A DNA stretch of 60,081 nucleotides from Eubacteriales bacterium (lineage in GTDB: Bacteria; Bacillota; Clostridia; Oscillospirales; JAAYXM01): contig JAZRUF010000107.1 in NCBI GenBank assembly GCA_045652405.1, positions 1 to 60,081 of the forward strand, in the 5' to 3' direction. Position numbers and translations under genes: made by a program. The notes under the pieces are model-generated. The model was not told the DNA's origin, did not search any database, and was given only the letters and a program-made list of their open reading frames with translations. Of this stretch, positions 1,904-52,598 are shown one piece after another (position 1 is the first letter of the stretch; each line of letters starts with the position of its first letter).

Positions 1904-3634
1904 ATGGCATTGGATGCTTTGTTTTTATCCGCGCTTGCACGTGAGCTCGATGAAAAGCTTAAGGGCGTGCGTGTGGATAAAATACATCAACCGGATAAGG
2001 AGGGTGTTCGTTTTGCCCTGCGCACCGGCGAAAAGCTTTTGATAGATGCGGGAAACAATTACCCGCGTATTCATTTAACAAAATCAGCAACCGAAAACCC
2101 GCAAACGCCGCCCATGTTCTGCATGCTTTTGCGGAAGCACCTTTCGGGCGGAAAAATTTCCGAGGTGCGGTGGCAATATCTTGAACGCGCAATAGATATA
2201 GAATTTGAGACTACGGATGAGCTTGGAATGCCTACCCGGAGAACACTCACCGCCGAGCTTATGGGAAGGCATTCAAACCTGATTTTGCGCGATGCGGATG
2301 ACCGTATCATAGATTGCTTAAAGCGTGTGGACCTTGCAATGAGTGAAAAACGCCAGGTTTTACCCGGGCTTTTCTACCAAAAGCCTCCTGCGCAGGATAA
2401 AAAGAATCCGCTTACAATCGGGCGCGCAGAGATGTTTAATGAGCTTCTCTCAGCACCTGACGAGGCACGAGCAGATAAATGGTTGCAGGATACTTTCATG
2501 GGCGTTTCACCCCTTATATGGCGCGAGATTATCTATCGCGCGGCGGGGGATAGCGGATTGCGCTTCTGTGAGATGGATGTTAAGGTAAAAGAGCGCATTG
2601 CATCATGCGCGATAGAACTGTTTGAGCAAGCCCTCGGCGAAAAGTACGTGCCGTGGATAGTCTATGAAAACGATAAGCCCAAGGACTTTAGTTTTTGCCG
2701 CATAAGCCAGTATGACGGAGTGTATGTCGGAAAAGAAATGCAAAGCCTTTCTGAGCTTTTGGATGCCTTTTATTCTGAGCGTGGTCTGCAGGAGCGTATG
2801 CGTCAGAAATCCCAGAATATTACGCGCACCGTCCAAAACGCCTATGAACGCGCTGTCCGGAAACAGGAGGTTCAGAAAGAAGAGCTTTTGCAGGCGCGCG
2901 ACCGTGAGCGGGACCGCGAGCTTGCGGATATAGTAACCGCAAACCTTTATCGCATGGAGCGTGGAATGAACCGTCTTGTCGCGCAGGACTTTTTTAAAGA
3001 GGATGCCCCCGAAATAGAGATTCCGCTTGATATACGCCTTTCCCCTCAGCAGAACGCGGCAAAGCTCTATAAGAGCTATAACCGCAAGAAAAATGCCGAA
3101 CTGTTTCTCACTGAGCAAATAGAAAAAGGTCAGCAAGAAGCTGAGTACCTTGAAAGTGTTTTGGAGAGTATTTCGCAAGCTGAAAGTGAAAAAGAACTCG
3201 AGGCGATACGTGAAGAACTCCATGACGGAGGATATATCTCGCATAGAAAAAATGCGGGAAGGGTACGCAAAAAAGACGAGCTTGCGCCTCGTGAATTCAT
3301 ATCCGAGGATGGATTTAGGATACTCGTCGGTCGCAATAATCGTCAGAACGATATATTGACGCTTAAATACGCCAATAAAAACGATATTTGGATGCATACG
3401 CAGAAAATACCCGGCTCTCACGTTGTCGTCGAATGTAACGGCCGGCAAGCGCCTGACAGAACACTTACTCAGGCGGCAGAGCTCGCCGCATATTACTCAA
3501 GAGCGCGCGAGTCAGGTCAGGTTCCGGTGGATTACACAAAAGTACGCAACGTTAAAAAGCCTGCGGGCGCAAAGCCCGGCAAAGTAATTTATGTTGATTA
3601 TCAGACCGCATATGTTTCGCCTAAGAAAATATAA
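1904..3634 (+). CDS. rqcH: NFACT-family ribosome quality control protein RqcH (fibronectin-binding protein A-like)
   Basis: 576 aa. It has an N-terminal NFACT-N block (LxGxRVDKIHQP), a central coiled coil, and a C-terminal NFACT-R block (GFxILVGRNNxQND, PGSHVV). Confidence 0.85.
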   Translation: MALDALFLSALARELDEKLKGVRVDKIHQPDKEGVRFALRTGEKLLIDAGNNYPRIHLTKSATENPQTPPMFCMLLRKHLSGGKISEVRWQYLERAIDIEFETTDELGMPTRRTLTAELMGRHSNLILRDADDRIIDCLKRVDLAMSEKRQVLPGLFYQKPPAQDKKNPLTIGRAEMFNELLSAPDEARADKWLQDTFMGVSPLIWREIIYRAAGDSGLRFCEMDVKVKERIASCAIELFEQALGEKYVPWIVYENDKPKDFSFCRISQYDGVYVGKEMQSLSELLDAFYSERGLQERMRQKSQNITRTVQNAYERAVRKQEVQKEELLQARDRERDRELADIVTANLYRMERGMNRLVAQDFFKEDAPEIEIPLDIRLSPQQNAAKLYKSYNRKKNAELFLTEQIEKGQQEAEYLESVLESISQAESEKELEAIREELHDGGYISHRKNAGRVRKKDELAPREFISEDGFRILVGRNNRQNDILTLKYANKNDIWMHTQKIPGSHVVVECNGRQAPDRTLTQAAELAAYYSRARESGQVPVDYTKVRNVKKPAGAKPGKVIYVDYQTAYVSPKKI

Positions 3635-31486: not shown

Positions 31487-32392
31487 ATGATGCTTGATTT
31501 TGAGCCGGTTGATATTTCACACAGAGAGCGAGCAGGGAAATATCTGTGCTGTGAAAACGCCATACATGCGGAGGGGTCATTCAATGCGTTGTATGCATGG
31601 GCGAAGTTTTTTAATACACAACTGTGTTTTTATGAAGATTTTCTCTTTATACGTTCAGGCAAAAATGGGAATAATTTTTATCAAATGCCGAGGGGCGAGG
31701 GCGACTCTGTCCACGCGATAGAGTTAATATGTAACGACGCAAAAGAGCGTGGCACGAGGCCTACGCTTATTAGTGTTACCGAGTGTATGCGTGAGCGCCT
31801 GGAAGATATTATGCCCGGTGCATTTGATTTTTTTGAGGACCGCGACAGCTTCGATTATGTTTATAACGCAAAAGACTTGATTGAACTTGCGGGAAGAACG
31901 TTCCATCAGAAGAGAAATAACGTTAATAAGTTTAAAAAGCTTCTTGACGGCAGATATGAATATCATGACTTTACCTCGGCTGATTTAGCGGAGGTATATG
32001 AGTTTCAGAAGTACTGGCTTGAAAAAAACATAAACGATGATAACCGTGTCTCTCTTGAAGGCGAAATGACGGTGATAGAGAGAATATTTAAAAATTTTGA
32101 TGAACTGGGTTATGTTGGAGGACTCATCAGAGTCGATGAAAAGATTGCCGCATACAGTATAGGTTCGCGCTTGTGCAGCAATGCGTTTTTGGTATCGGTA
32201 GAAAAAGCGGATATACAGTATCCGGGCATTTATCAGGCGATAAATCAGTTTTTTGCCGCGAGCCATTGCACAGACGTGCGATACATTAACCGTGAGGATG
32301 ATGCGGGCTCTGAGGGATTGCGTAAAGCAAAGCTTTCGTACCACCCTGAAATTTTGCTTACAAAATACAGAGCGGTTTGGAAAAGGGACTGA
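31487..32392 (+). CDS. DUF2156 (lysyl-PG synthase C-terminal-like) domain protein
   Basis: Size and the FHQKRN / GLRKAKLSY blocks are typical of this GNAT-like fold. Confidence 0.6.
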   Translation: MMLDFEPVDISHRERAGKYLCCENAIHAEGSFNALYAWAKFFNTQLCFYEDFLFIRSGKNGNNFYQMPRGEGDSVHAIELICNDAKERGTRPTLISVTECMRERLEDIMPGAFDFFEDRDSFDYVYNAKDLIELAGRTFHQKRNNVNKFKKLLDGRYEYHDFTSADLAEVYEFQKYWLEKNINDDNRVSLEGEMTVIERIFKNFDELGYVGGLIRVDEKIAAYSIGSRLCSNAFLVSVEKADIQYPGIYQAINQFFAASHCTDVRYINREDDAGSEGLRKAKLSYHPEILLTKYRAVWKRD

Positions 32393-35744: not shown

Positions 35745-35772
35745 TTAAGATATGATAAAAGGCGGGAAAGTT

Positions 35773-36993
35773 ATGAAGAGACCGGAGCTTTTGTCACCGG
35801 CAGGGGATAGAGAAAAGCTTGAAACCGCGCTTGCATACGGCGCAGACGCGGTATACCTGGCAGGCGAGGAATTTGGAATGCGCTGTGCATCTGAAAACTT
35901 TTCGGAGGATAGCATCGCAGACGCGATAGCGTATGCCCATAAACGAGGGGCGGCGGTATATGTTACTTTAAATACAATGCCGCGCAACGATGAAGTTGCG
36001 CGGCTACCCGCATTTCTTGAGGTGCTTGAGAGTGCAGGTGCAGATGCGGTCATTGTCGCAGATATAGGTGTTATGACGGCGGTTAAAAAATACGCGCCGA
36101 ATGTTAAAATTCATATAAGCACTCAGGCAAGCATTGTAAATTATCAAAGTGCGAATGCGTGGCATGAGCTGGGCGCAGACCGTATAGTTTTAGCGCGTGA
36201 ACTCAGTCTTGACGAAATTCGCGAGATACGTGCAAAAACTCCTGCCAAGCTTGAGATAGAGACGTTTGTGCACGGAGCAATGTGTATGTCCTACTCCGGG
36301 CGGTGTATGCTCTCAACATATATGACCGGGCGTGACTCTAACCGGGGACGCTGTGCTCAACCTTGCCGGTGGAAATATGCGGTTGTAGAAGAAAAACGTC
36401 CGGGCGAGTATTATGAAATTTGCGAGGATGGAAAAGGTACGTACATATTCAACTCAAAGGATATGTGCATGATTGAGCATATCCCTGAGCTTATTGATGC
36501 GGGGATTGACAGCTTTAAGATAGAAGGCCGCGTCAAATCTGCATTTTACAATGCGACGATAACAAATGCCTACAGAATGGCGATTGACTCATATCTGGAA
36601 TGTCCGGAAAAATGGAATCCCAAGGGTCCGTGGTCAGAGGAGGTTCACAAGGTAAGCCATCGCGAATACTTTACCGGTTTTTATTTTAGAGAAACACCCA
36701 GCGAGTATCACAGGGACTCGATGTATATTCGTGACTGGGATGTTGCAGCGGTTGTTTTGGATTGTGATGTCGATGGAAAAGCGCGCATAAGCGTGCGAAA
36801 TCGCTTTTTTAGCGGGGATGATTTGGAACTTCTTGAGCCCAAAAAGGAAACATGCGCGTTTAAAGCCGAGCTTTTTGATTTGGACGGTGAGCCGCTTGAG
36901 GTTGCGCGCCATGCCAAGATGGAAGCGCATATAACCTTGCCGCGCCAAGCAGTAGCGGGCGCAATGCTCAGAGTAAGACGTGGCGAGGAATGA
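35773..36993 (+). CDS. U32 family peptidase (YrrN/YrrO / TrhP-like)
   Basis: Has PELLSPAG at the N-terminus and the E.F.HGA.C..YSG.C signature. Confidence 0.85.
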   Translation: MKRPELLSPAGDREKLETALAYGADAVYLAGEEFGMRCASENFSEDSIADAIAYAHKRGAAVYVTLNTMPRNDEVARLPAFLEVLESAGADAVIVADIGVMTAVKKYAPNVKIHISTQASIVNYQSANAWHELGADRIVLARELSLDEIREIRAKTPAKLEIETFVHGAMCMSYSGRCMLSTYMTGRDSNRGRCAQPCRWKYAVVEEKRPGEYYEICEDGKGTYIFNSKDMCMIEHIPELIDAGIDSFKIEGRVKSAFYNATITNAYRMAIDSYLECPEKWNPKGPWSEEVHKVSHREYFTGFYFRETPSEYHRDSMYIRDWDVAAVVLDCDVDGKARISVRNRFFSGDDLELLEPKKETCAFKAELFDLDGEPLEVARHAKMEAHITLPRQAVAGAMLRVRRGEE

Positions 36994-37898
36994 ACAGAGT
37001 AATTAAACACTGCGTCACAGCGGCGCAGGATGGCTCTTTTTTGCGCGATTTGCTAAGACGTGAGATTTCTATATCCGCAAAGCTACTTGCGAGGATAAAA
37101 CGCACTGCGGGCGGAATAACATTGAACGGAGAATCTGTACATGTCAATGTGCGGGTAAAACAAGGGGATATTATCAAAGTTGTAATTGAAAACAATGAAA
37201 GCGCATGTGCAAATCTTATCCCTGTGCCCGGAAAGCTTGATATTTACTATGAGGATGAAGATGTCCTTGTAATAAATAAACCGGCTGGGATACCGGTTCA
37301 ACCCGCCATAGGTGCACCTGAAGGTGCGTTGGGGAATATAGTTGTCTGGCACTATGCTCAAAAAGGCGAAAATGTGATTTTCAGACCTGTTAACAGACTT
37401 GATAGCGGTACATCCGGTCTTATGGCTGTGGCAAAGAACAGCCATGTGCATACCGCACTCATAAAGACGCTGCATACTGGGCAGTTTAAGCGTAAGTACC
37501 GCGCGATAGTACACGGTAGATTTAGCCGAGAGTGCGGTAGTGTAGAAGCTCCTATTTGCAGAGTGGAAGGCTCGGTGCTTAAAAGGATGGTTCATCCGGA
37601 TGGGAAGTGGGCTAAAACGAATTATCGCGTTCTCGAAGAAATCGGGGATTGCAGCCTTATTGAGCTTGAACTTATGAGTGGGAGAACTCATCAGATCCGC
37701 GTGCATATGTCACATATAGGTCATCCGCTTGTCGGCGATTTTTTGTACGGAATAGAAGAGGTGGAAGTAATAGGAAGATTTGCGCTTCACTCTGCAGAAA
37801 TGAGGTTTACTCATCCTATTTCGAGCGTAGAGATTATCTTAAAATCCGATTTACCCGAGGATATGTGTGATGCAATGAGAAAAATCAGCAGTATCTGA
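36990..37898 (+). CDS. RluA family pseudouridine synthase
   Basis: S4-like N-terminus, the HRLD-type motif (NRLDSGTSGL), and GRTHQIR. Confidence 0.9.
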   Translation: MNRVIKHCVTAAQDGSFLRDLLRREISISAKLLARIKRTAGGITLNGESVHVNVRVKQGDIIKVVIENNESACANLIPVPGKLDIYYEDEDVLVINKPAGIPVQPAIGAPEGALGNIVVWHYAQKGENVIFRPVNRLDSGTSGLMAVAKNSHVHTALIKTLHTGQFKRKYRAIVHGRFSRECGSVEAPICRVEGSVLKRMVHPDGKWAKTNYRVLEEIGDCSLIELELMSGRTHQIRVHMSHIGHPLVGDFLYGIEEVEVIGRFALHSAEMRFTHPISSVEIILKSDLPEDMCDAMRKISSI

Positions 37899-37986: not shown

Positions 37987-38063
37987 CGGGTTGTGGCTCA
38001 GTTTGGTAGAGCGCTGCGTTCGGGACGCAGAGGCCGCAGGTTCAAATCCTGTCAACCCGACCA
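37987..38063 (+). tRNA. tRNA-Pro (anticodon CGG), CCA encoded
   Basis: The cloverleaf folds by hand. Acceptor is CGGGTTG/CAACCCG, anticodon arm is CTGCG-ttCGGga-CGCAG, and T-arm is GCAGG-ttcaaat-CCTGT. Confidence 0.95.
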
Positions 38064-38108: not shown

Positions 38109-38270
38109 GATTGGGAGGATTTGAACCTTAAGAAGGCATGCGGAGAAAAGCAAAATACTCCGGTGGAGTGTTTTGCCGACGCATGGTGCGAAGACGGGTA
38201 CTGAGCGGTTAAACCGCTCGGTCGTCAAGCAAATAAGACGCGAAGCGGCTGTATCCTGTCAACCCGACCA
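38109..38270 (+). ncRNA. tRNA-3'-end-linked structured element, copy 1 (unclassified candidate ncRNA or miniature element)
   Basis: 5' arm 38116-38128 is the reverse complement of the tRNA-Pro T-arm (13/13). Hairpin A is 38151-38175 and the TGGTGCG box is 38184-38190. The bulged hairpin B GACG-GGT-ACTG...CGGT-CGTC is 38193-38226, and hairpin C (GAA loop) is 38236-38250. The tail 38253-38270 is identical to the last 18 nt of tRNA-Pro. Confidence 0.55.
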
Positions 38271-38274
38271 AAAT

Positions 38275-38310
38275 AAAGGAATCTCGTAAAACGAGGTTCC
38301 TTTGTTTTTT
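38275..38310 (+). terminator. intrinsic terminator (near-duplicate of 38068-38103)
   Basis: It has the same stem as the tRNA-Pro terminator, with 2 substitutions at the loop edge, followed by a T-tract. Confidence 0.8.
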
Positions 38311-38315
38311 GTTTA

Positions 38316-38338
38316 GATTGGGAGGATTTGAACCTTAA
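38316..38338 (+). repeat. truncated second copy of the element 5' arm
   Basis: GATTGGGAGGATTTGAACCTTAA repeats 38109-38131 exactly and then diverges. It belongs to an 86-bp direct repeat (38046-38131 versus 38253-38338). Confidence 0.85.
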
Positions 38339-38345
38339 ACAATAG

Positions 38346-38381
38346 GGAAAAAGAGAAACTCTCGTGAGAGTTTCTCTTTTT
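38346..38381. terminator. bidirectional hairpin terminator (serves the minus-strand CNNM gene)
   Basis: AGAGAAACTCTC/GAGAGTTTCTCT stem flanked by an A-tract and a T-tract. Confidence 0.8.
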
Positions 38382-38384
38382 CGT

Positions 38385-39656
38385 TTAGTCTTTGTTTTTT
38401 TCTTCATCTTCGGTTTGGACAGTGCGGATTACTTTTGCGAAAGCGACACGATGGGAATCGGTTTGCGTTACAATTATATTTAAATTCTCGTAAGTGAAGC
38501 GGTCACCTTTTACAGGTATTTTATCCAATTGCTCCATAATCCAACCACCGAGAGATACGCTATCTGCGTCTTCGTCGTCAATGTCAAAAAACTGGCAGAA
38601 GTCATTGAAATTTACTGTGCAGTCAACCAAGAATACGTTTTCGGATAATTCGCGGAAGGTAACTGTTACTTCATCGTGTTCATCCCATATTTCACCGACC
38701 AACTCTTCGAGTATATCTTCCATTGTGACAATACCTAAAGTGCCGCCGTATTCGTCAATGACGATTGCTATATGAGACTTGCGAGTTTGCAGAAGCTTGA
38801 GTAAGTCATCTATCTTCTCCGACTTATGTATAAACAGCGGAGGAGTGATGATGTCAGTCACTTCTTTTTCGGTTACACCTGAGCCGATATAAAAATCCTT
38901 CTGATGGATTATGCCAACGATATTGTCGATGTTTTCCTTGTATACCAACAAGCGTGAAAATCTTGACTCATTGAAAACGCGTGCTATTTCCTCCTTGGGT
39001 GCTTCAATAGGAACTGCTTCCAAATCTACACGGTGGGTTAAAATATCCTCGGCTTCCAAATCGCCAAACTCTATTGCGTTGCGTAAAAGGACACCTTCAT
39101 CAGTGTCAATGCTTCCTTCTTGCTCAACCTCGTCTACCAGAAGAAGTAACTCTTCCTGAGACATTTTTGAGTCTTCCTCTACGTTAAAAAGCTTAGATAT
39201 AAGCTTTTTCCACATAGAGAATAGGAAATTGATGGGGGTAAGTACCCAAATGAGCAGACGGATAAACGGAGCAGAAAACATTGCAAATTTTTCAGGGAAA
39301 TCCTTTGCTATGCTCTTTGGTGTTATCTCGCCGAAAATGAGGACTGCTATAGTTACTACAACCGTGGATACCGTAGCTCCGATATCGCCATATAAGTGGA
39401 CAAAAAGAACCGTGCCTATAGAGGCGACTGCAATGTTTACAATGTTATTCCCTACCAAGATTGTGGAAATCAGGCGGTCATATTGCTCGGAAAGAGCCAG
39501 TGCGAGTTCTGCCTTTCGGTTCCCTTTCTCCGACAGAGCTTTTAAGCGTGTCTTGTTAAGCGAGGAAAAAGCAGTTTCGGTTGCTGAAAAATACCCTGAG
39601 AATAGTATGCATAATGCCATAGATATAATATAGGGTAATATGTCACTTGCGGTCAT
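38385..39656 (-). CDS. CNNM/CorC-type membrane protein (DUF21 + CBS pair + CorC_HlyC; 'hemolysin family')
   Basis: N-terminal 4-TM DUF21 domain, a CBS pair, and a C-terminal transporter-associated domain. Confidence 0.9.
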   Translation of the reverse strand: MTASDILPYIISMALCILFSGYFSATETAFSSLNKTRLKALSEKGNRKAELALALSEQYDRLISTILVGNNIVNIAVASIGTVLFVHLYGDIGATVSTVVVTIAVLIFGEITPKSIAKDFPEKFAMFSAPFIRLLIWVLTPINFLFSMWKKLISKLFNVEEDSKMSQEELLLLVDEVEQEGSIDTDEGVLLRNAIEFGDLEAEDILTHRVDLEAVPIEAPKEEIARVFNESRFSRLLVYKENIDNIVGIIHQKDFYIGSGVTEKEVTDIITPPLFIHKSEKIDDLLKLLQTRKSHIAIVIDEYGGTLGIVTMEDILEELVGEIWDEHDEVTVTFRELSENVFLVDCTVNFNDFCQFFDIDDEDADSVSLGGWIMEQLDKIPVKGDRFTYENLNIIVTQTDSHRVAFAKVIRTVQTEDEEKNKD

Positions 39657-39912: not shown

Positions 39913-40027
39913 CACATGAGAGGGATTTTCTCTGCGATTAAATCAGGGTGTATAAGGATTGTGCGCGATTTTTTGAAAATGTAGATTGAAGTTTTAAAAG
40001 AAAAAATAAAAAAATTTAAATTTAGGG

Positions 40028-40056
40028 TTGATTTTAAAATAAAGATGTGGTATCAT
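40028..40056 (+). promoter_or_regulatory. sigmaA promoter TTGATT-17-TATCAT with TGn extension
   Basis: It lies about 30 nt upstream of tRNA-Arg. Confidence 0.6.
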
Positions 40057-40088
40057 AATAAAGCTGTCAACAAAACAGCGTGAAAAAT

Positions 40089-40165
40089 GCGCTCGTAGCT
40101 CAGCTGGATAGAGTGACTGGCTACGAACCAGTAGGTCAGGGGTTCGAGTCCCTTCGGGCGCGCCA
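40089..40165 (+). tRNA. tRNA-Arg (anticodon ACG), CCA encoded
   Basis: Acceptor is GCGCTCG/CGGGCGC, anticodon arm is ACTGG-ctACGaa-CCAGT, and T-arm is AGGGG-ttcgagt-CCCTT. Confidence 0.95.
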
Positions 40166-40170
40166 GAAAA

Positions 40171-40197
40171 AGCATCGACTATAGTCGGTGCTGTTTT
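40171..40197 (+). terminator. intrinsic terminator of tRNA-Arg
   Basis: AGCATCGAC-tata-GTCGGTGCT followed by GTTTTGTTTTG. Confidence 0.8.
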
Positions 40198-40216
40198 GTT
40201 TTGTTTTGTAAATGTC

Positions 40217-40378
40217 AGGAAAGGGACTCGAACCCTGAGAGGGCACGAACCGTGAAGCAAAACAGTCCGGTGGACTGTTTTGTAGGTGAGTGGTGCGCAG
40301 ACGGGTACTGAAAGGCAAAGCCTTTCGGTCGTCAAGCAGTGCGGTTGCAAAGCAATCGTTGTCCCTTCGGGCGCGCCA
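40217..40378 (+). ncRNA. tRNA-3'-end-linked structured element, copy 2
   Basis: 5' arm 40221-40235 is the reverse complement of the tRNA-Arg T-arm (15/15). Hairpin A is 40258-40282, the TGGTGCG box is 40291-40297 and hairpin B is 40300-40333. Hairpin C (AAA loop) is 40342-40358. The tail 40361-40378 is identical to the last 18 nt of tRNA-Arg. Confidence 0.55.
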
Positions 40379-40384
40379 CAAAAA

Positions 40385-40412
40385 AGCATCGACGATAGTC
40401 GGTGCTTTTTTT
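40385..40412 (+). terminator. intrinsic terminator (near-duplicate of 40171-40197)
   Basis: AGCATCGAC-gata-GTCGGTGCT followed by TTTTTTT. Confidence 0.8.
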
Positions 40413-40452
40413 GTTTTGTTTTGAAAAAACAAAAGTATTAAATATACAATAA

Positions 40453-47092: not shown

Positions 47093-47179
47093 GCGGATAT
47101 GGCGGAATCGGCAGACGCGCTAGATTCAGGTTCTAGTCGGGGCAACTCGGTGGAGGTTCAAGTCCTCTTATCCGCACCA
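47093..47179 (+). tRNA. tRNA-Leu (anticodon CAG), type II, CCA encoded
   Basis: Acceptor is GCGGATA/TATCCGC, anticodon arm is CTAGA-ttCAGgt-TCTAG. It has a long variable arm and the T-arm GGAGG-ttcaagt-CCTCT. Confidence 0.95.
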
Positions 47180-47218: not shown

Positions 47219-47375
47219 AAAAGAGGACTTGAATCTTAAGAAGGCAACGAGCGTACAAAAAACGATTCATAATCGTTTTTAGCGAAGTTGGTGCGCAGAC
47301 GGGTACTGAAAGGCGCTGCCTTTAGGTCGTCAAGCAAGTAAGACGCGAAGCGACTGTGTCCTCTTATTCGCACCA
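47219..47375 (+). ncRNA. tRNA-3'-end-linked structured element, copy 3
   Basis: 5' arm 47221-47236 is the reverse complement of the tRNA-Leu T-arm (15/16). Hairpin A, at 47258-47280, has a completely different stem sequence from the other copies. The TGGTGCG box is 47289-47295, hairpin B is 47298-47331 and hairpin C (GAA loop) is 47341-47355. The tail 47358-47375 matches 17/18 of the tRNA-Leu(CAG) 3' end. Confidence 0.55.
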
Positions 47376-52318: not shown

Positions 52319-52402
52319 GCGAGTGTGCTGGAACTGGCAGACAGGCACGTTTGAGGGGCGTGTGCTTATGGCGTACGGGTTCAAGTCCCGTCACTCGCAC
52401 CA
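52319..52402 (+). tRNA. tRNA-Leu (anticodon GAG), type II, CCA encoded
   Basis: Acceptor is GCGAGTG/CACTCGC, anticodon arm is CACGT-ttGAGgg-GCGTG. It has a long variable arm and the T-arm ACGGG-ttcaagt-CCCGT. Confidence 0.9.
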
Positions 52403-52450: not shown

Positions 52451-52598
52451 AGAAGGGACTTGAAGCCTAAGAGGGTTTTTGCGTAAAACAAAACAGTCCG
52501 GTGGACTGTTTTGTAGCAAAAAGGTGCGAAGACGGGTACTGCAAAGCGGTCGTCGAGCAAATAGTATGCGAAGCATACGTGTCCCGTCACTCGCACCA
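52451..52598 (+). ncRNA. tRNA-3'-end-linked structured element, copy 4
   Basis: 5' arm 52455-52464 is the reverse complement of the T-loop and T-stem of tRNA-Leu(GAG) (10/10, with partial matches beyond). Hairpin A is 52489-52513 and the GGTGCGA box is 52523-52529. Hairpin B, at 52531-52554, is minimal (ACTGC-aaa-GCGGT). Hairpin C (GAA loop) is 52564-52578. The tail 52581-52598 is identical to the last 18 nt of the tRNA. Confidence 0.55.

Follow-up and report, generated by a model that had tools for sequence, protein, structure and literature searches.

Why should the last 18 nucleotides of a tRNA gene, together with the terminator that follows them, occur a second time shortly downstream? 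The question is raised by a tRNA-Arg(ACG) gene with an encoded CCA (40089-40165, plus strand; detected by ARAGORN and, at 63.1 bits, by the Rfam tRNA model) in a 60,081-nt stretch of DNA from a Eubacteriales bacterium, the whole of which was analysed and is called the window below. A direct repeat that runs from the T-loop to the 3' end of a tRNA is the classic signature of integration by a tyrosine integrase, and the first-pass annotation of the locus had read it as the bracket of an inserted element. The anatomy described there stands, as does the assignment to a family. The inserted element with its target duplication does not, and the repeat belongs to an apparently undescribed family of putative genes for structured RNAs of about 158 nt.

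The first copy of the direct repeat (40148-40208, plus strand) comprises tRNA positions 59-76, an A-rich spacer, a terminator hairpin (40171-40192) and an interrupted T run; a promoter-like site lies before the tRNA gene (40028-40056). The sequence recurs at 40361-40423 with about 92% identity (about 5 differences in about 62 nt, by gapped alignment), close to the 90% or so first reported, and the differences are exactly those listed at the time: CCA-G-AAAAA in the first copy against CCA-C-AAAAAA in the second, a T in the hairpin loop where the second copy has G, and a T run that reads GCTGTTTT in the first and GCTTTTTTT in the second. Two segments emerged from a repeat search. One (40148-40171 versus 40361-40384) is 96% identical and holds the 18-mer GTCCCTTCGGGCGCGCCA, unchanged in both copies; this is tRNA-Arg 59-76 at 40148-40165, with an exact second occurrence at 40361-40378. 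The other (40167-40212 versus 40381-40426) is 83% identical without gaps and spans the terminator and the T/G run. The duplicated hairpin between the A-rich spacer and the T/G run is AGCATCGAC/GTCGGTGCT, and both versions score as terminator-like (40171-40192 and 40380-40411). The one beyond the second CCA, which ends in an uninterrupted T7 run (40380-40423, plus strand), is probably the terminator of the element in front of it.

The locus also contains an inverted repeat. Positions 40140-40154, which are tRNA 51-65, are complementary to 40221-40235 over all 15 nt, bearing out the early observation that the latter segment is antisense to the tRNA-Arg T-arm. Between the two copies of the direct repeat lie 195 bp without a real ORF. 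Two minus-strand frames, 39994-40389 and 40136-40432, overlap the tRNA and the covarying RNA described below, and were judged not to be real proteins.

An element of this kind follows every tRNA gene of the window, as expected if the tRNA-Arg element is one member of a family, which had been proposed from the start. ARAGORN finds only four tRNAs over the window, each with one element behind it, and the four elements have a common layout: an arm antisense to the T-arm, a core of about 120 nt, the last 18 nt of the tRNA, and a terminator. The tRNA-Arg element is the second of the four. Copy 1 (38114-38270) belongs to tRNA-Pro(CGG) (37987-38063), copy 3 (47222-47375) to tRNA-Leu(CAG) (47093-47179) and copy 4 (52453-52598) to tRNA-Leu(GAG) (52319-52402), all on the plus strand. 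At copy 4 the terminator is duplicated; at copy 3 the terminators are unrelated, and the tail has U where the tRNA has C69. The window contains four occurrences of the 19-mer core GGTGCGMAGACGGGTACTG, where 0.01 would be expected, and each of them lies 110-126 nt past the end of one of the four tRNA genes. This excess, the invariable position behind a tRNA and the recurrence at about 50 independent loci exclude chance.

A scan for the core pattern in one genome per species found it at about 70 loci, nearly all of them in MAGs of gut and rumen Clostridia (Oscillospiraceae, Acutalibacteraceae, Congzhengia and 'Eubacteriales'), along with about 15 chance matches elsewhere. A covariance model, R1, recovered 95 copies in the core loci, diverged and tandem ones included, and exactly four in the window, with scores of 128-159 bits. 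The core is found in none of 2.9 million viral contigs. In the JGI metagenome collection the core pattern has only 4 true loci, and a pattern specific to copy 2 has no match. DNA runs that contain the window come from bovine, sheep and other gut metagenomes; their contigs over copy 2 represent a mixed population, from which strain polymorphism is not readable. Rfam 15 places no family on the element, whether the whole window is scanned at gathering thresholds or positions 40050-40450 at E <= 10, and the matches from those scans are tRNAs and chance matches on terminators. Nor did full-text literature searches, whose coverage leaves out most subscription journals, return a published description of such an RNA.

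The copies conform to a model of five helices, in which P1 joins the arm to tail positions 59-65, P2 is a mini-hairpin, P3 a long hairpin, P4 a conserved helix and P5 a variable one. In a structure-blind MAFFT alignment of 48 sequences, 85% of cells at the 53 proposed pairs are paired, against 38-44% in slid controls; in the R1 model alignment of 95 sequences the figure is 89%, against 36-47% for slid partners. Double changes in the latter alignment number 742, compared with 85-126 in controls, and none of 500 shuffles matched the observed covariation values. The element is a structured RNA fold on the plus strand. The assignment of the strand follows from an invariant U-G pair in P4 and many further G-U pairs, all of which turn into A-C mismatches on the minus strand. 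The fold energy of copy 2 is -68 kcal/mol for the plus strand and -58 kcal/mol for the minus strand; the minus strand was considered as the RNA strand and rejected for its weaker fold and for these mismatches.

Copy 2 itself (40221-40378, plus strand) is a five-helix junction of 158 nt, recognized by R1 at 159.3 bits (E = 4.6e-44), with a fold z-score of -3.8 and covariation across the family. Its 5' arm, AAGGGACTCGAACCC (40221-40235), is the reverse complement of tRNA 51-65, and thereby antisense to the T-arm positions 51-63, GGGTTCGAGTCCC (40140-40152). The arm has three segments: a P1 strand that pairs with the tail (40221-40227), the unpaired pentamer TCGAA antisense to T-loop 54-58 (40228-40232), and the 5' strand of P2 (40233-40235). 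P2 as a whole (CCCT-GAG-AGGG, 40233-40243) has a stem that covaries and tracks the T-stem of the tRNA, and the first base of its loop, R17, covaries with arm position Y9 in 100% of cases, a possible sign of a second conformer or of a tertiary pair. The long hairpin P3 (40244-40292), whose internal loop is rich in G and A and whose upper stem is rich in A-U pairs, is supported by covariation. P4 (40294-40338) carries the conserved core TGCGCAGACGGGTACTG ... CGGTCGTCAAGCA; it contains the invariant U-G pair and a GGU bulge, and its tip is a variable hairpin. P5 (40341-40359) is variable and contains two G-U pairs in copy 2. Last comes the 3' tail (40361-40378), the second occurrence of tRNA-Arg 59-76. 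Positions 40361-40367 of the tail pair with the arm in P1. The rest (40368-40378), corresponding to the acceptor 3' strand, the discriminator and CCA, has no partner inside the element, and a search upstream of and inside the element for a cis partner of tail 66-73 gave nothing above the non-cognate control. A single-sequence MFE fold of copy 2, in which the tail pairs with the core motif GGUGCGC, was rejected as peculiar to the Arg acceptor sequence and without family support.

How closely do these RNAs follow their tRNAs? At about 55 loci 40-64 nt separate the element from the tRNA upstream, which is always encoded on the same strand, and the tRNAs concerned are of at least 14 types (Pro, Arg, Leu, Ser, Glu, Gln, Lys, Trp, His, Met, Ala, Thr, Val and Asp). 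In units of several tRNAs it lies behind the last one every time. Matches were counted over 51 cognate element-tRNA pairs. The first 13 nt of the arm are antisense to tRNA 51-63, that is, to the T-loop and 3 bp of stem on each side, and complementarity holds in 50-51 of the 51 loci at tRNA 54-61, in 41-50 at 51-53 and 62-63, and in 26-30 at 64-65. The tail, which forms the last 17-18 nt of the element and equals tRNA 59/60-76, agrees with the tRNA in 49-51 of 51 loci at positions 60-76, the unpaired discriminator and CCA included, and in 44 of 51 at position 59.

Four details of this correspondence argue that the tRNA itself is the thing matched, beyond what the fold of the RNA would need. At position 59 the arm complements the tRNA base in all 51 pairs, including the 7, L007, L014, L018 and L050 among them, in which the tail deviates. 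Y9, the sole variable nucleotide of the unpaired pentamer antisense to 54-58, tracks tRNA R57 in 50 of 51 loci, and does so even within tRNA-Trp (L032 and L063 versus L058 and L075). An unusual A52 in the tRNA of L041 is mirrored by both arm and P2. Finally, tRNA genes that lack CCA are accompanied by tails that lack it (L034 and L068). The correspondence at both ends also extends to the half of the loci that have no duplicated terminator. There, tails are identical to the tRNA at 18 of 18 positions despite unrelated terminators and homology limited to those 18 nt (for example L020, L045 and L056), which favors selection over gene conversion. In principle, DNA-level processes could preserve these matches: for the arm, correction of the inverted repeat with the neighboring T-arm as template, and for the tail, conversion in loci with long repeats.

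The RNA is assembled from parts. Within one MAG, the elements for tRNA-Pro(UGG) and tRNA-Glu(CUC) share about 97% identity over the whole of P3-P5, while arm, P2, tail and flanks differ throughout, which implies a scaffold fitted with tRNA-specific modules. Several other pairs behave likewise, and scaffolds of elements for different tRNAs within one genome can be 87-97% identical; the scaffolds of the four window copies are 61-74% identical. Such pairs could have arisen by gene conversion of the scaffold, or by duplication followed by retargeting. One element, L042, is chimeric, and intact elements are also found away from a cognate tRNA, behind a non-cognate tRNA or none (L037, at 159 bits, L083 and L084).

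The age of the repeat can be judged from an orthologue of copy 2 in a related MAG (L023), which has the same tRNA-Arg/glnA synteny. The two RNAs differ by 10 substitutions, among them two compensatory pairs, which are double changes in P3. The first repeat copy of L023 equals the second repeat copy of the window, which identifies as derived, in the window's first copy, the G after CCA, the T in the loop and the interruption of the T run; the second copy of L023 has lost about 45 bp. Repeat and element are, on this comparison, older than the split of the two species. It had been suggested that the divergence between repeats could date the copies, an idea that this comparison does not support, since a repeat that predates the split is no insertion clock. 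As judged from the two loci, the divergence is later mutation, possibly with conversion as well.

Taken together, these results are best summarized as a new family of structured RNAs matched to tRNAs, known here from sequence and strongly constrained in design. We consider it probable, though well short of certain, that the direct repeat is the visible edge of a putative gene for a structured RNA of about 158 nt with tRNA-derived modules, and that this RNA acts on its cognate tRNA by pairing. That it base-pairs with the tRNA, or mimics it, is our best inference from the match at both ends, which suggests an RNA built to recognize or stand in for one specific tRNA.

A plausible course of events can be outlined. 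Transcription would either read through a leaky first terminator, with its GTTTTG run, or start at a weak promoter belonging to the element, and would stop at the second terminator. The duplicated terminator would supply both RNA and tRNA with the same signals for 3'-end formation. When the RNA is free, the tail (P1) and P2 are predicted to hold the arm, leaving the pentamer antisense to T-loop 54-58 exposed and the acceptor-strand/NCCA part of the tail single-stranded. The exposed segment would nucleate pairing with the cognate tRNA, the arm would then capture T-arm 51-63, and the freed tail would pair with the acceptor 5' strand of the tRNA, whereby the 59-76 segment of the RNA would replace that of the tRNA. 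Candidate outcomes are that unfolded or 3'-damaged tRNA is sequestered or sensed, that processing is controlled, or that the 3' segment is truly exchanged. Cofolding predicts a heterodimer of arm with T-arm and tail with acceptor 5' strand at -12 to -18 kcal/mol, with modest cognate specificity and with tertiary structure ignored. Because the T-loop of folded, modified tRNA is buried, the mature molecule would have to unfold before it could pair.

The same repeats might instead be left by a non-autonomous mobile element or retroelement that inserts behind tRNA terminators and copies the tRNA 3' end and terminator, for instance from a pre-tRNA or read-through transcript; the repeat would then be a by-product and the arm a targeting guide. 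We consider this unlikely. It would account for the non-functional spacer and terminator included in the repeat at about 25 of 51 loci, for the tandem arrays and decayed second copies that are common, for the spread to at least 14 tRNA types, for the 87-97% identity of scaffolds of different tRNAs within one genome, and for the orphan copies. It sits poorly, however, with scaffolds as different as those of the window (where a transposon or MITE would show near-identical copies within a genome), with copies that are orthologous and syntenic between species and evolve by compensatory change, with a repeat older than a species split, and with the absence of the core from viral contigs. Terminal inverted repeats are lacking, the two ends of the element (arm and P5/tail) being inverted only in P1.

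The repeat, moreover, does not behave as the target duplication that the first-pass annotation implied. A transposon or MITE duplicates an arbitrary target over a fixed length, whereas here the start is fixed, at tRNA 59/60, and the length varies with the locus, from 18 to about 85 bp. Roughly half of the loci repeat only the 18 nt of the tRNA and have unrelated terminators, as at window copy 3, and those 18 nt are a module of a covarying RNA, identical to the tRNA even without flanking homology. No suitable enzyme is at hand either. The roughly 30 ORFs of the window are housekeeping genes (RqcH, RecJ, RelA/SpoT, MltG, a U32 peptidase, an RluD-type synthase, CorC, GlnA and others; the neighbors of copy 2 are a CNNM/CorC transporter and glutamine synthetase), and no integrase, transposase, recombinase or reverse transcriptase occurs among them or recurs at the approximately 75 loci inspected. 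A search of those loci for a recurrent neighbor or partner protein returned generic families only, UvrA-like and AraC-like, at 9 loci each.

A different possibility is that the element is a cis-acting 3' extension of the tRNA unit. In a read-through transcript the arm would pair with the T-arm of the same molecule and the tail would serve as a second 3' segment, controlling the folding, 3' processing or decay of the pre-tRNA. Position is in its favor, as the element is always on the same strand, 40-64 nt after the last tRNA of the unit, and so are the transcription signals: no promoter-like site was found before copy 2, and upstream of the arm no -10 element at a fixed distance exists across the family, only AT-richness, which also counts against the preferred reading. 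The T run of the first terminator at copy 2 is interrupted, at position 59 the arm tracks the tRNA rather than the tail, and a contig from run X16 reaches upstream from the element through a terminator-like T run. But intact, high-scoring elements stand behind non-cognate tRNAs or none, and a conserved scaffold of about 100 nt exceeds the needs of a simple antisense or decoy. On balance we doubt this reading as well.

Data on RNA come from relatives, as the window organism is absent from the RNA runs searched and nothing in them matched over copy 1. A conserved 66-mer of related copies has a depth of 1-4 in one metatranscriptome. Related copies are deeper in a second run, of ambiguous library type and with a profile like that of DNA runs.

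A bolder version of the pairing model is a tRNA-specific donor and splint, in which the last 18 nt of the RNA (T-stem 3' strand, acceptor 3' strand and NCCA) would be transferred to the tRNA, renewing or repairing its 3' end, with one donor gene for each tRNA. The arm straddles the 58/59 junction and the tail starts at 59, the arrangement of a guide or splint to which a replacement segment is attached. The arm would bring a tRNA 5' fragment, or a strand-invaded tRNA with A58 as its last nucleotide, to lie with its 3' end beside G59 of the RNA, while the tail paired with the acceptor 5' strand. Transfer would depend on catalysis by the RNA itself or on a ligase such as RtcB after cleavage. We regard this as a long shot.

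The idea that the repeats are decayed attL/attR scars of a tRNA-targeting integrative element (a prophage or island), with the repeated tRNA 3' end as att core, fits the classic signature, since tRNA-gene att sites of the T-loop class likewise have a repeat from T-loop to 3' end that flanks DNA downstream of an intact tRNA (here 40148-40165 and 40361-40378), but it is very improbable indeed, as the 195 bp between the repeats hold no ORF and no island cargo, no integrase is nearby, the same covarying RNA (about 140 nt, conserved) lies between the repeats at 14 or more tRNA types rather than at one or a few targets, the repeat is selected as part of that RNA, and an antisense arm has no role in att sites.

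If the preferred reading, an RNA that pairs with its cognate tRNA, is pursued, several known systems offer partial parallels. The bridge RNA of IS110 and the omega RNAs of TnpB/IscB also combine a conserved scaffold with short programmable segments. One segment of the element is complementary to one strand of its site and the other identical to it, and so complementary to the opposite strand, and in omega RNAs too the 3' segment is flanking target sequence. The element differs in that no adjacent recombinase or nuclease gene is present in the window or recurs at related loci, in that it has no transposon ends and matches no Rfam family, in that its copies are stable orthologous chromosomal loci, and in that its guide-like segments are terminal and pair with each other. 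Trans-splicing group I ribozymes have the same order of parts: a 5' internal guide sequence, a core and a 3' exon. The guide of the element is complementary to tRNA 51-58 and to the start of its own 3' segment (59-63/65), and the structured core is followed by a 3' segment that equals the downstream part of the target. Its core, however, is about 115 nt and forms a five-way junction without P3-P9 architecture or G-binding site, the Rfam Intron_gpI model does not match it, and no nucleotide is conserved at the putative junction.

Other RNAs resemble the element in recognizing or mimicking a specific tRNA, among them T-boxes, RNase P, Y RNA/YrlA and tmRNA. T-boxes, which reside in the 5' leader of the mRNA that they regulate, recognize the anticodon and NCCA, and their specifier and discriminator-pairing base vary with the cognate tRNA much as the arm does here. 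The element, by contrast, lies downstream of a tRNA gene, is antisense to the T-arm, carries the 3' strand of the tRNA and is followed by a terminator of its own; the T-box model has no match over 40050-40450 at E <= 10. The tRNA-like RNAs (tmRNA, Y RNA/YrlA, mascRNA and viral TLS) yield no ARAGORN or Rfam match on the element, which has no acceptor 5' strand. Engineered external guide sequences (EGS) for RNase P come closer in one respect: the predicted fold likewise projects a single-stranded acceptor 3' strand, discriminator and CCA from a helix resembling the T-stem. The only obvious target of the element would be the 5' strand of the tRNA itself, which sets it apart, and we know of no natural bacterial EGS-type RNAs of this kind. 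Models for small self-cleaving ribozymes (HDV-like/theta, hammerhead, twister, hatchet, pistol and hairpin) do not match 40050-40450 at E <= 10. HDV-like theta ribozymes are nonetheless structured RNAs directly 3' of tRNA genes in gut microbes; they abut the 3' end of phage tRNAs and adopt the HDV double-pseudoknot fold (PMC10879173). The element instead follows the terminator, has another fold, is chromosomal and is absent from viral contigs.

If these RNAs are expressed and act as their design suggests, they would be the first bacterial programmable RNA family dedicated to individual tRNAs. They would add a layer to tRNA biology in abundant gut and rumen Clostridia, be it 3'-end surveillance, sequestration, repair or control of maturation, and would offer a naturally modular scaffold for tRNA targeting. 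For annotation, the family explains recurrent partial tRNA duplications that are open to misreading as att sites or pseudogenes, makes repeat divergence at such loci unusable for dating insertions, and adds an unannotated RNA gene of about 155 nt behind many tRNA genes in the genomes that carry it.

The spacer and terminator beyond CCA are duplicated in about 25 of the 51 loci and not in the remainder. The duplicated terminator, together with unequal crossing-over, would account for the frequent tandem or partial extra copies. Further complete or decayed tandem copies are seen at L006, L054, L081, L035, L046 and L010, and in the window itself a third, partial copy of the arm lies past the terminator of copy 1, at about 38318-38337.

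Several related loci outside the window show that the tail of the element, its last 17-18 nt, follows the tRNA gene even where that gene departs from the mature product. Where the CCA is not encoded in the tRNA gene it is also missing from the element tail, and similar bases (TAA) come next, as seen at L034 (3140-3290), L068 (181-335, minus strand), and L026 (381-534). Because gene and tail lack the CCA alike, the tail copies the gene rather than the mature tRNA. Within the window, C69 of tRNA-Leu(CAG) is replaced by U in the tail of copy 3 (position 47365), a change that would preserve pairing with the 5' strand of the tRNA acceptor as G4-U69. This U69 provides a natural marker by which transfer of the tail could be tested.

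At the other end of the element, the arm, antisense to the T-arm of the cognate tRNA, shows a connection to the helix P2. In the alignment of element copies (A2), the segment antisense to the T-loop has a variable pyrimidine at model position 9 (window 40229 in copy 2), and the P2 triloop begins with model position 17 (window 40237). These two bases pair in 100% of 79 sequences, as C-G, U-A, or U-G. A simple P2 hairpin would not accommodate this pair, which may therefore reflect a switch or a tertiary contact.

Copy 2 lies between two terminators, the first (40171-40208, between tRNA-Arg and the element) with a 9-bp stem and an interrupted T run (GTTTTGTTTTG), and the second (40380-40423, 3' of the element) with a 14-bp stem and T7. 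This order of an interrupted run followed by T7 fits read-through into the element; the same arrangement is not a general pattern across the element family.

Behind copy 1, the repeat 3' of the element (38253-38337) runs beyond the terminator into a third, partial arm copy, gggaggatttgaaccttaa, which is followed by a different terminator at about 38355-38385. The partial arm looks like the remnant of a second tandem element. Two complete elements in tandem, with a period of ~200 bp, stand behind a single tRNA at L006 (5463-5815), L054 (3362-3717), L081 (2079-2424), and L035 (6364-6719), and at L046, L010, L082, and L050 the first element is followed by a second copy with an internal deletion. 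Together, the tandem pairs and the internally deleted second copies suggest unequal crossing-over between the repeats and subsequent decay.

Elements are also found away from their cognate tRNA. One matched to tRNA-Met is conserved, along with its upstream hairpin, in four MAGs, each with a different context: L037 (6547-6702, minus strand), L083 (3128-3283), L084 (2693-2851), and L065 (3493-3669), the last carrying an insertion of about 60 nt in P2. These contexts are positions after two different CAU-anticodon tRNAs, a position without any tRNA, and one 3 kb from the cognate tRNA-Met. At L042, the element at 1394-1546 is chimeric, with a tail from tRNA-Gln(CUG) and an arm matched to the upstream tRNA-Pro(CGG).

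ARAGORN calls a tRNA-Leu(GAG) gene at 52319-52402, but when the whole window was scanned with Rfam this gene stayed below the gathering score of the tRNA family. Also in the window are several housekeeping genes related to tRNA or rRNA, namely those for RqcH/NFACT (1904-3634), an aminoacyl-phosphatidylglycerol synthase C-terminal domain protein (31487-32392), a U32 peptidase-family protein (35752-36993), and an RluD-type pseudouridine synthase (36990-37898), whose presence near the elements is probably coincidental.
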